Shown: positions 16,124-19,691, counted from the stretch's first letter. The stretch is DNA of 64,000 bases from Escherichia coli (GCF_045037415.1 NZ_CP173438.1), one strand, 5' to 3'. A program made the numbers and translations. The notes: generated by a model from the letters alone, not told the origin.

Positions 16124-17155
16124 ATGAAAATTAACAAGATATTATCATCTGCAACACTATTGTATGGTATGTCAATGGCCATGTCGGTCGGGAGTTGTGC
16201 AACACCTGTCCAGACTAATCTTCCTGGTTACACCCCGGGTGCAGATATCATTAGTGTTTCACCGACCAGAAACCAGGTCGATCTCATTGGTGATGTTGTT
16301 TATTCCCAGATAAAAGGAACTCGTTCTGTCAGACAGCTTCACATGTCAGTTCTTGTCCCGCGAACAAATGATTTAAAACCAGCCATTATTTATTATCCCG
16401 GCGGCGGATTCATGTCTTCTGAACATGACAAATTTATTGAAATGAGAATGGCTCTGGCAGAAGCTGGTTTTGTTGTGGCCGCTGTAGAATACAGAACAAT
16501 TCCTGATACATTTCCAGCACCAGTTGAGGATGGAAAAGCTGCAATACGTTACCTGAGAGAGCATGCCAGCAATTATGGGATTGATCCTCAAAGAATCGGA
16601 GTTCTGGGTGACTCTGCCGGTGGATGGCTTGCCCAGATGATGGGAACTACAAATGGTGACAAAACCTTTGATAAAGGTGACTTTCTTCAGCAATCCTCAG
16701 ATGTTCAGGCAGTTGCCACACTTTATGGGATTTCTGACTTGTTGAATATTGGCGAGGGGTTCCCTGAATCAGTGCAGGAGGTTCATCGCTCTCCTGCCGT
16801 AACCGAAGCCTTAATGATCAATGGCCCTGCATTCAGAAATTTTGCGGGAGCCCCCATCACAGCGTCAAAAGAAAAAGCGCTAAACGCCAGTCCAATCGGA
16901 CATATGAAAGGAGTAAAACCCCCATTTCTTATTATGCATGGTAGCAAAGACACTCTGGTTTCACCTGAGCAAAGCGCCAAACTATTCAGGATGTTGAAGA
17001 AGAACGGTGATAACGCTGAGTACGTGCTGGTAGAAGGGGCCGAGCATGGCGATAAGACATGGTATCAGCCAATTATTATAAACAGAGTCGTTGAGTGGTT
17101 TACTAAAAACCTGGGAGCGCCTATAAAAACAGCTCCCCAACAACAAAACCCGTAA
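16124..17155 (+). CDS. Alpha/beta-hydrolase esterase/lipase (HSL-type motifs), probable lipoprotein; C-terminus truncated by 4 codons by the IS66 insertion
   Basis: 343 aa; N-terminus MKINKILSSATLLYGMSMAMSVGSC (signal/lipobox-like); PGGGF oxyanion-hole motif; GDSAGG serine-hydrolase pentapeptide; stop codon supplied by the first bases of the IS; low-GC context. Confidence 0.8.
   Translation: MKINKILSSATLLYGMSMAMSVGSCATPVQTNLPGYTPGADIISVSPTRNQVDLIGDVVYSQIKGTRSVRQLHMSVLVPRTNDLKPAIIYYPGGGFMSSEHDKFIEMRMALAEAGFVVAAVEYRTIPDTFPAPVEDGKAAIRYLREHASNYGIDPQRIGVLGDSAGGWLAQMMGTTNGDKTFDKGDFLQQSSDVQAVATLYGISDLLNIGEGFPESVQEVHRSPAVTEALMINGPAFRNFAGAPITASKEKALNASPIGHMKGVKPPFLIMHGSKDTLVSPEQSAKLFRMLKKNGDNAEYVLVEGAEHGDKTWYQPIIINRVVEWFTKNLGAPIKTAPQQQNP
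17144..17151. repeat. 8-bp target-site duplication (left copy) of the IS66 element
   Basis: CAAAACCC immediately outside the left IR, identical to 19684..19691. Confidence 0.8.
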
Positions 17156-17181
17156 GCGTCAACGGAGCACCGTATTGACGC

Positions 17182-18795
17182 TTATTTATTGGTGAGTACT
17201 ACGTTCCATGGCAGGAGTTCGTCAACTCGGTTGGAAGGCCATTCCGGCAGTACGCTCAGGATATGGCGCAGATACGCTTCCGGATCGATACCGTTCAGAC
17301 GGCAGGTGCCGATCAGCCCGTACAACAGTGCTCCACGCTCGCCGCCGTGATCGCTGCCAAAGAACATAAAGTTTTTCTTTCCGAGACAGACTGCACGAAG
17401 CGCTCTTTCCGCAGCATTATTATCCGCCTCCGCCAGACCGTCATCACTGTAATAACAGAGGGCATCCCACTGATTCAGTACATAGCTGAACGCTTCGCCC
17501 AGTCTGGATTTTTTCGACAGCGTACCATTCTTCTCCACCATCCATTCATGCAGCGACGTCAGTAACACTTTGCTTCGCTGCTGCCTGACGGCAAGACGCT
17601 CTGACTCCGGTAATCCCCGTATTTCATCCTCGATGGCGTACAGTTCACTGATTCGCTTCAGGGCTTCTTCTGCCGTCGCACTTTTGCTGCTGATGTATAC
17701 ATCGTGGATTTTTCGCCGGGCATGGGCCCAGCACGCAACTTCTGTCAGTGCACCACCTTCACGTTCTGCACTGAACAACCTGTCGTAACCTGTGAACGCA
17801 TCCGCCTGCAGGATACCCCGGAAGGGGCGGAGGTGTTGCTCCGGGTGTTTCCCCTGCCGGTTCGGCGAGTACGCGAACCAGACCGCTGGAGGAGATGACG
17901 AACCCACATTGCGATCATCCCGGACATACGTCCAGATACGCCCTGTTTTCGCCTTTTTCTGACCCGGTGCCAGTACCTTTACCGGTGTGTCATCAGTGTG
18001 AACCTTGCGGGTGTTCATTACATAACGGTACAGGGCATCATTCACCGGTGTCATTAACTGGCAGCACGCGTCAACCCAGTTGGAGAGTAAGGCCCGGCTC
18101 AGTTCGACACCCTGGCGGGCAAAGATTTCACTCTGACGATACAGTGGCAGATGTTCGCAGTATTTTCCCGTTAACACGCGGGCAAGTAATCCGGGGCCCG
18201 CGATACCACGCTCTATCGGGCGGGACGGCGCCGGTGCTTCAACAATACAGTCACATTTTGTACAGGCTTTTTTTACCCGTTCTGTGCGGATCACTTTCAG
18301 GGCACTGCTCACCAGTTCCAGCTGTTCAGCGCTGACTTCCCCCAGATAATCCAGCTCACCGCCACACTCCGGGCAACAGCTTTCTTCTGGCTCCAGGCGG
18401 TGTATTTCACGGGGAAGGTGTGCCGGTAACGGACGACGATGGCGCGACTGTCGCAACTGGCGGGGAACCTGAGGATCGTCTTCCCGCCCACTGTAACGAT
18501 CGCTGTCCTGTTCACGTTGTTTCAGCAGAGCCTCAGCCAGTTCAACTTCACGACGCAGTTTTTCAGAACGGGTACCGAACAGCATCCGGCGCAGTTTTTC
18601 TATCTGAGCCCGCAGATGTTCTATTTCCCGTTCATCTTCTTCGATCTTTTCTTCGGCACGTGTCAGTGCAGAGCGCAGGAAGGCTTCCGTCTCTTCAACC
18701 AGACTCAGTTGCTGGTCTTTCTGACGGAGGGCTTCAGCCTGCTCAGAGAGCAACCTTTCCAGCTCTGCGATGCGAATGAGGTATTTCTGACTCAT
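17182..18795 (-). CDS. tnpC: IS66-family transposase TnpC
   Basis: 537 aa; coiled-coil/leucine-zipper N-terminus, CxxC zinc-finger motifs (CPECGG, CTKCDC), conserved DDE core region (...HTDDTPVKVLAPGQKKAKTGRIWTYV...). Confidence 0.9.
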   Translation of the reverse strand: MSQKYLIRIAELERLLSEQAEALRQKDQQLSLVEETEAFLRSALTRAEEKIEEDEREIEHLRAQIEKLRRMLFGTRSEKLRREVELAEALLKQREQDSDRYSGREDDPQVPRQLRQSRHRRPLPAHLPREIHRLEPEESCCPECGGELDYLGEVSAEQLELVSSALKVIRTERVKKACTKCDCIVEAPAPSRPIERGIAGPGLLARVLTGKYCEHLPLYRQSEIFARQGVELSRALLSNWVDACCQLMTPVNDALYRYVMNTRKVHTDDTPVKVLAPGQKKAKTGRIWTYVRDDRNVGSSSPPAVWFAYSPNRQGKHPEQHLRPFRGILQADAFTGYDRLFSAEREGGALTEVACWAHARRKIHDVYISSKSATAEEALKRISELYAIEDEIRGLPESERLAVRQQRSKVLLTSLHEWMVEKNGTLSKKSRLGEAFSYVLNQWDALCYYSDDGLAEADNNAAERALRAVCLGKKNFMFFGSDHGGERGALLYGLIGTCRLNGIDPEAYLRHILSVLPEWPSNRVDELLPWNVVLTNK

Positions 18796-18825
18796 GACCG
18801 TTTTTATAATGCGGTCAGGAGTTTT

Positions 18826-19176
18826 TTACAACATTGTCAGTGAGTTACGGCTGGATGTTTTTGGCTGACGCCAGTCCAGCTTATCGAGGAGCATTGCCAG
18901 TTGCGAGCGGGTAATGGATACCTTGCCGTCACGTACCGCAGGCCAGATAAACTGGCCTTCCTCCAGGCGTTTGGTGAACAGGCACAGACCATCAGCATCA
19001 GCCCAAAGAATTTTGACGGTGTCACCCCGTCGGCCACGGAAGATAAACAGGTGACCGGAGAAGGGATTATCATTCAGCACATGTTGTACCTGTTCTCCCA
19101 GTCCGTTGAAGGATTTACGCATATCGGTAACGCCGGCAACGAGCCAGATACGGGTACCTGATGGGAGTGAGATCAT
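18826..19176 (-). CDS. tnpB: IS66 Orf2 (TnpB)
   Basis: 116 aa, MISLPSGTRIWLVAGVTDMRKSFNGLGEQVQHVLNDNPFSGHLFIFRGRRGDTVKILWADADGLCLFTKRLEEGQFIWP... typical IS66 TnpB. Confidence 0.9.
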   Translation of the reverse strand: MISLPSGTRIWLVAGVTDMRKSFNGLGEQVQHVLNDNPFSGHLFIFRGRRGDTVKILWADADGLCLFTKRLEEGQFIWPAVRDGKVSITRSQLAMLLDKLDWRQPKTSSRNSLTML

Positions 19177-19598
19177 CTTCCCCTCCCGGTCAGTTCACGG
19201 ATCAACACTGTGAGCAGCTCTGGCGATGGATTTTCCAGCGTCATGTTACCGTGACGGAATTCCACCTTGCAGGAACTGGCACTGACTCTGGTCTGAGTGG
19301 AAGTGGATAAAGACGGCGCAATGGCCGCCACAGGTTCTTTCTGCTCATCCGGCGTTATTTCTACAGGTAATAATTCAACGCCAGTGTCAGAAGAGGTCGT
19401 TACCGGAAGACGCCGCGAAACACGCCCTTCGTTCTGCCAGAGCCTGAGCCATTTGAAAATAACATTATCATTGACGCCATTTTCACGTGCAATCTGTGCA
19501 ACACAAGCTCCAGGTTGTGATGCCAGTTCCACCATACGAAGTTTGAATTCATTCGAATAGTTTTTACGAGGTTCTTTTCGCCAGTCCTGTAATTCCAT
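19173..19598 (-). CDS. tnpA: IS66 Orf1 (TnpA, HTH)
   Basis: 141 aa, MELQDWRKEPRKNYSNEFKLRMVELASQPGACVAQIARENGVNDNVIFKWLRLWQNEGR...; overlaps tnpB by 4 nt. Confidence 0.85.
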   Translation of the reverse strand: MELQDWRKEPRKNYSNEFKLRMVELASQPGACVAQIARENGVNDNVIFKWLRLWQNEGRVSRRLPVTTSSDTGVELLPVEITPDEQKEPVAAIAPSLSTSTQTRVSASSCKVEFRHGNMTLENPSPELLTVLIRELTGRGR

Positions 19599-19683
19599 AC
19601 TTAGATGTCCGTCTATATCAGATGGGCGTCTAAGTTACCAATTCTCGTCTGATGGCTACATACGGCGGTCAGTTTACGCTTAC

Positions 19684-19691
19684 CAAAACCC
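19684..19691. repeat. 8-bp target-site duplication (right copy) of the IS66 element
   Basis: CAAAACCC immediately outside the right IR. Confidence 0.8.

Follow-up and report, generated by a model that had tools for sequence, protein, structure and literature searches.

An ISEc23 insertion replaces the last four codons of a prophage-borne esterase gene in Escherichia coli of the ST131 type

How did a complete insertion sequence (IS) come to lie at the meeting point of two convergent prophage genes, and what has it done to them? The question is raised by a stretch of 64,000 nucleotides of Escherichia coli DNA (GCF_045037415.1, NZ_CP173438.1; hereafter the window, in which all positions are counted), where an element of the IS66 family, ISEc23, sits at the junction of a gene for an alpha/beta-hydrolase, here called the esterase, and a gene for an intimin/invasin-like adhesin (Table 1). 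The locus almost certainly arose when ISEc23 transposed, in a single event, into the last codons of the esterase, a gene that a lambdoid prophage in E. coli of the sequence type 131 (ST131) kind carries as part of its nin-region cargo. No evidence contradicts the insertion itself, and the site is more commonly found uninterrupted.

Filled and empty sites

Much of the evidence for this conclusion comes from genomes in which the site is empty. The query for the empty site joined 600 bp from the left of the element, including one copy of the 8-bp repeat CAAAACCC, to 600 bp from the right of the second repeat copy, and about 420 complete E. coli genomes contain this reconstructed junction unbroken, with 100% identity across the whole 1200 bp; among them are the ST131 reference strains EC958, JJ1886 and JJ1887. 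The EC958 sequence aligns at 100% identity to window positions 10552-17151 and resumes at 19684, with 8 bases common to both alignments, and its annotated esterase coding sequence (CDS) of 1044 nt encodes 347 amino acids (aa) with the end ...QQNPNANL. The same end, followed by the stop, is obtained when the IS and one repeat copy are deleted from the window in silico. The filled site occurs in 72 genomes, in identical position and orientation; in one of these, Ecol_AZ146, the gene order is that of the window and the esterase CDS comprises 1032 nt.

At the left junction, the esterase reads CAA CAA AAC CCG TAA, in which IS bases 1-4 provide the last base of CCG and the TAA. The proline is thus retained (CCA to CCG), the new stop codon (17153-17155) consists of IS bases 2-4, and N-A-N-L is lost. 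The CAAAACCC octamer is not rare (5 occurrences in the window, with 2.8 expected), the probability of finding it by chance exactly against both IS ends is 4^-8, and the comparison with the empty-site genomes removes the residual doubt about the duplication.

Most of what a preliminary description had claimed for this locus stands. The complete IS66-type element, with tnpA-tnpB-tnpC on the minus strand and imperfect terminal repeats that start with GTAAGCG, is corroborated by the open reading frames (ORFs), the Pfam matches and the comparison of the two ends, and the flanking 8-bp direct repeat by two perfect copies at the filled site and one at the empty site. That removal of the IS restores ...QQNPNANL follows both from the reconstruction and from the EC958 CDS; likewise, the claimed ...QQNP-stop, with an IS-supplied TAA and four residues lost, agrees with the position of the stop within the element. 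The check that the description itself had named, a search for IS-free alleles with the reconstructed NPNANL end, was run, and such alleles were found in the roughly 420 genomes just counted; no IS-free relative with another junction came to light. One statement needs correction: the IS was said to lie precisely between the convergent genes, whereas it actually interrupts the ORF of the esterase, with 12 nt of sense codons left to run.

Table 1. Features of the ISEc23 insertion and its flanks (window positions; minus-strand genes are given from start to stop).
Feature	Position	Strand	Details
Truncated alpha/beta-hydrolase (BD-FAE family) esterase	16124-17155	+	343 aa, ends QQNP; WP_029700859.1 in filled-site genomes
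Left 8-bp target-site duplication	17144-17151		CAAAACCC; covers codons Q-N and the initial two bases of the P codon in the esterase; single copy at the EC958 empty site
Complete ISEc23, IS66 family	17152-19683	-	2532 bp; 100% identity to annotated copies
IRR, terminal inverted repeat, tnpC-distal end	17152-17175		GTAAGCGTCAACGGAGCACCGTAT
IS-end hairpin	17152-17185	+	14-pair stem with 2-nt bulge, then UUAUU; -17.9 kcal/mol, z -4.98
tnpC, DDE transposase	18795-17182	-	537 aa; DDE_Tnp_IS66 PF03050, E 9e-98
tnpB, IS66 Orf2 accessory protein	19176-18826	-	116 aa; TnpB_IS66 PF05717, E 1e-36
tnpA, helix-turn-helix accessory protein	19598-19173	-	141 aa; HTH_Tnp_1 PF01527
IRL, terminal inverted repeat, tnpA-proximal end	19660-19683		From end comparison
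Right 8-bp target-site duplication	19684-19691		CAAAACCC; perfect repeat of the left copy
Orphaned esterase 3' end	19693-19707	+	AAC GCT AAC CTG TAA, i.e. N-A-N-L-stop
GC-rich hairpin between the original convergent stops	19712-19732	both	From fold energies
Inverse-autotransporter (intimin/invasin-like) adhesin	23652-19744	-	1302 aa; PF11924 (E 5e-101), Big_1, Invasin_D3

Identity of the element and its other copies

The element was compared by megablast with 5426 complete E. coli genomes. Many E. coli chromosomes and plasmids carry the full 2532 bp at 100% identity, about 2100 records match at an identity of at least 99%, and the three encoded proteins (WP_000422741.1, WP_000624722.1 and WP_000080195.1) are those of other ISEc23 copies. 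The identical copies are labelled by RefSeq/PGAP as 'IS66-like element ISEc23 family transposase', and tnpA and tnpB are annotated alongside. ISEc23 is a catalogued E. coli insertion sequence that has been reported on the plasmid pEC958 (PMC4398462). Judged by these matches, the element is ISEc23; it is identical to the copies so named by RefSeq in its 2532 bp and three proteins, and the insertion site alone is particular to the lineage.

Elements of the IS66 family combine the gene order tnpA-tnpB-tnpC, an ATGA overlap, terminal repeats of about 20-30 bp starting with GTAAGCG, and an 8-bp target duplication; a CwAH-rR motif in the transposase is reportedly another mark of the family, of which IS66 and IS679 are said to be the prototypes. 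The present element resembles IS66 and IS679 in all these respects but is a distinct family member with a distinct sequence. Activity in transposition, for which the three genes would be required, is suggested indirectly by the duplications that accompany identical copies, numbering in the thousands, at different sites. Its tnpA and tnpB overlap at 19173-19176 (TCAT on the plus strand), 30 nt separate the tnpB stop (18826) from the tnpC start (18795), and the tnpC product contains the additional domains zf-IS66, LZ_Tnp_IS66 and IS66_C (PF13005, PF13007 and PF13817, respectively) as well as the motif CWAHARR, within ...EVACWAHARRKIHD... Both terminal repeats, 24 nt in length and complementary at 20 of the 24 positions, begin with GTAAGCGT, and a degenerate pattern for the IS ends has two matches in the 64 kb, which are the two ends themselves (0 expected from shuffled sequences). 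A candidate protective hairpin upstream of the tnpA start (inverted repeat 19599-19635) was rejected, given that the 94-nt leader folds no better than its shuffles (z -0.46).

Eight other 100%-identical ISEc23 copies were fetched with their flanks. Perfect 8-bp duplications adjoin seven of the eight, with the same boundaries and a different sequence in every case; the boundaries and the 8-bp duplication are, therefore, properties of the element, and ISEc23 has no strong target preference. A target-site consensus was sought in the eight duplication sequences, which are mildly AT-rich, and none emerged. The sole copy without a duplication, on the plasmid NZ_CP032202.1 (flanks AAACTGCC vs CTTGAGCC), lies beside a truncated traX; a rearrangement between copies of the IS is the suggested cause. 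The copy in the plasmid pGE3 (NZ_CP012377.1, 2683-2712) abuts the terminus of another IS66-family element: the final base of its duplication together with the flank reads GTAAGCGTGCAG..., and the neighbouring gene is an IS66-family tnpC. Among the filled sites, that of strain A1.S1.126 (NZ_CP146588.1, 3153248-3158241) spans 4994 bp rather than 3740 bp and overlaps an annotated transposase of the IS3-like ISEc52, which appears to have inserted here, in all likelihood within the copy of ISEc23.

The lost C-terminal motif of the esterase

The 343-aa esterase is annotated as intact by RefSeq despite the loss of its tail. Comparison with 120 homologues at 63-97% identity, from Enterobacterales, Rhizobium, Variovorax and others, gives a different impression of the four missing residues. 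Of the 120, 109 have L as the C-terminal residue; within these 109, N occupies position -2 in 88 sequences, A occupies position -3 in 78, and N or D occupies position -4 in 86, while the linker of about 10 residues that precedes the motif is variable. Because the terminal motif is kept in 109 of the 120 homologues while the linker varies, the lost NANL is, as far as the alignment tells, part of a conserved C-terminal [N/D]-A-N-L motif and not a random tail, so that the enzyme may be affected. We know of no function for this motif.

The most probable of the alternative readings builds on this conservation and holds that the filled site is effectively a loss-of-function or mislocalisation allele of the esterase, brought about by the loss of a C-terminal recognition motif. 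An AlphaFold model (70-sequence alignment, mean predicted local distance difference test score, pLDDT, of 83.7) places the tail beyond the last helix of the fold (residues 316-330), a placement characteristic of short motifs that a partner protein recognises. The esterase carries a predicted signal peptide, as do homologues; a homologue in Dickeya aquatica bears the name ferulate esterase, and the Dickeya feruloyl esterase FaeD, which may or may not be the same protein, is a substrate of type II secretion, which provides a lead only. Several observations pull in the other direction: about 9% of the homologues naturally lack the tail, RefSeq accepts the shortened protein, the pLDDT falls from 80 for residues 331-340 to 53 for residues 341-347, which rules out a confident docking of the tail, and the closest solved structures stop at the hydrolase domain. 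The best of these, 6nkf, aligns through its own residues 14-293 of 304 to residues 48-330 of the esterase and has no counterpart of the tail. On balance, a disabled or misplaced esterase is a tentative proposition with perhaps one chance in four, or slightly less, of being right. Slightly more doubtful still is the broader idea that the terminal [N/D]-A-N-L-COOH of this subfamily of secreted esterases is a functional short motif (e.g. for export, sorting or protease recognition), of which ISEc23 would have made a natural knock-out fixed in an ST131-type sublineage.

The signal peptide of the allele in the window (16124-16200) ends in a lipobox-like VGSC with Cys25. The representative of its 97%-identical cluster (P0001) has Tyr at the position of Cys25 and most homologues have ordinary signal peptides, so that the status of the esterase as a lipoprotein is doubtful or allele-specific.

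Transcription around the insertion

Before the insertion, a gap of 36 nt that contained a GC-rich hairpin separated the convergent stop codons of the two genes (19705-19707 and 19744-19746). On the adhesin (minus) strand, this hairpin has a 9-pair stem (-25 kcal/mol, z -4.4) followed by CUUUUU and is canonical in form; on the esterase (plus) strand, it is weaker (-17.2 kcal/mol, z -2.8) and its tail CAUUCAAUUUU is interrupted. It is thus predicted to work well as an intrinsic terminator on the strand of the adhesin, with termination in the direction of the esterase plausible but weaker. In the filled site, this hairpin remains with the adhesin.

The element brings a hairpin of its own, which begins one base before the new esterase stop codon and would supply the esterase mRNA with a 3' stem-loop and, probably, with some termination; a transcript that continued past it would be untranslated and antisense to tnpC. 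RNA of this kind is generally vulnerable to Rho. The same hairpin, read on the minus strand, follows the tnpC stop (-20.3 kcal/mol, z -2.9) and is succeeded by GGGUUUUGUUGUU. In 17149-17186 of the minus strand, this GGGUUUUGUUGUU derives from the target duplication and the flank, so that here the flank completes a terminator-like signal for transcripts that leave this particular IS copy.

It has been suggested that the insertion alters regulation, either by esterase read-through into the IS or by an outward promoter that changes the expression of the adhesin. The removal of the esterase from the shared hairpin by 2.5 kb speaks for such an effect, as does the fact that adhesin-strand transcripts, had they run past the terminator, would pass into the IS and read tnpA in the sense orientation. 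Against it, the adhesin gene points toward the insertion: the side of its promoter is 4 kb distant, and its terminator continues to stand between its stop codon and the IS. Transcription from a promoter directed outward at IRL would run antisense to the adhesin and reach the hairpin in less than 30 nt, and the stable IS-end hairpin with its UUAUU tail lies at the new esterase stop. The promoter scan of 15900-20100 yielded 5 promoter-like sites, compared with 4.0 +/- 1.9 expected by chance, and no outward-facing promoter at either IS end. Two hybrid promoters were considered and found unconvincing: at the IRR end, TTGACG lies 5 nt from the terminus but the flank offers TGGGGA as a -10 element, and at the IRL end, TTTACG pairs with GCTAAC. 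A regulatory effect is, accordingly, very unlikely.

These results bear unevenly on the preliminary description, which had inferred a bidirectional terminator, the separation of the esterase from it, and possible read-through or outward promotion toward the adhesin. The bidirectional terminator is structurally fair, although the adhesin strand is stronger and the U-tract of the esterase strand is broken; the separation is real; the last proposal fares badly, with promoters at chance level, the adhesin terminator kept and a hairpin at the new stop.

Course of the insertion

The most economical account is that of a single insertion without much further effect. ISEc23 entered the esterase gene close to its stop codon, made the 8-bp duplication of its family by a staggered cut and, through its own terminal GTAAG, put a stop in place of the last four codons, N-A-N-L. 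As ISEc23 lacks a strong target preference, the 72 identical filled sites point to one event and shared descent, i.e. the insertion would have occurred once and then been inherited by these genomes. The esterase mRNA would now end at or near the IS-end hairpin instead of the shared terminator, the adhesin gene would be unaffected, and the only likely phenotypic effect would be on the esterase itself, via the loss of the conserved tetrapeptide.

Parts of this account are less secure than the insertion itself. The single origin is deduced from the identity of the sites, and the consequences for transcripts and enzyme are predictions. The name ISEc23 is based on the RefSeq labels of identical copies and on the paper on pEC958. 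Finally, the low pLDDT of the last seven residues leaves the placement of the tail unsure.

The long tail is, judging by the full-length tails in homologues from other genera, ancestral. The reverse history, in which the IS-bearing state came first and was later turned into empty sites by precise excision, would likewise leave one CAAAACCC copy, as observed, but it is exceedingly improbable in view of an empty-to-filled ratio of about 6:1, of full-length tails ending in L throughout the 97%-identical allele cluster and the homologues from other genera, and of the rarity of precise excision among DDE insertion sequences.

The prophage and its adhesin

The region of approximately 10552-26000 is a lambdoid prophage shared with EC958. 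It encompasses the O/P replication genes; the adhesin and esterase, a cargo that takes the place of ren/nin genes; and ybcN, ninE, ybcO, rusA, Q, holin, lysozyme, Rz and iss (approximately 11713-12006, plus strand). The IS-free allele of this prophage, as in EC958 and JJ1886, is 100% identical in both flanks and alike in the esterase, adhesin, P and nin genes; it differs in the absence of the IS, in the 347-aa esterase, and in an adhesin of 1421 aa with three 357-bp repeats.

The adhesin gene bears no damage from the IS. In the window, its CDS of 3909 nt contains two tandem copies (21632-22343) of the 357-bp (119-aa) repeat, about 97% alike. Three copies (CDS of 4266 nt, 1421 aa) are present both in EC958, where the site is empty, and in Ecol_AZ146, where it is filled, so the repeat number is independent of the IS. 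A literature search on the prophage adhesin in EC958 found nothing.

Implications

The insertion is an event of a known kind, and the same filled site is already public and annotated in 72 genomes. It is most likely a lineage marker: its presence in these 72 genomes and its absence from about 420 other prophage-bearing E. coli genomes might be put to use in subtyping. Beyond such bookkeeping, the insertion is of little consequence and otherwise ordinary. Nevertheless, the 343-aa esterase passes as intact in annotation pipelines even though its conserved terminal motif is gone, and the filled and empty strains constitute a natural pair in which the function of the esterase tail motif may be probed.

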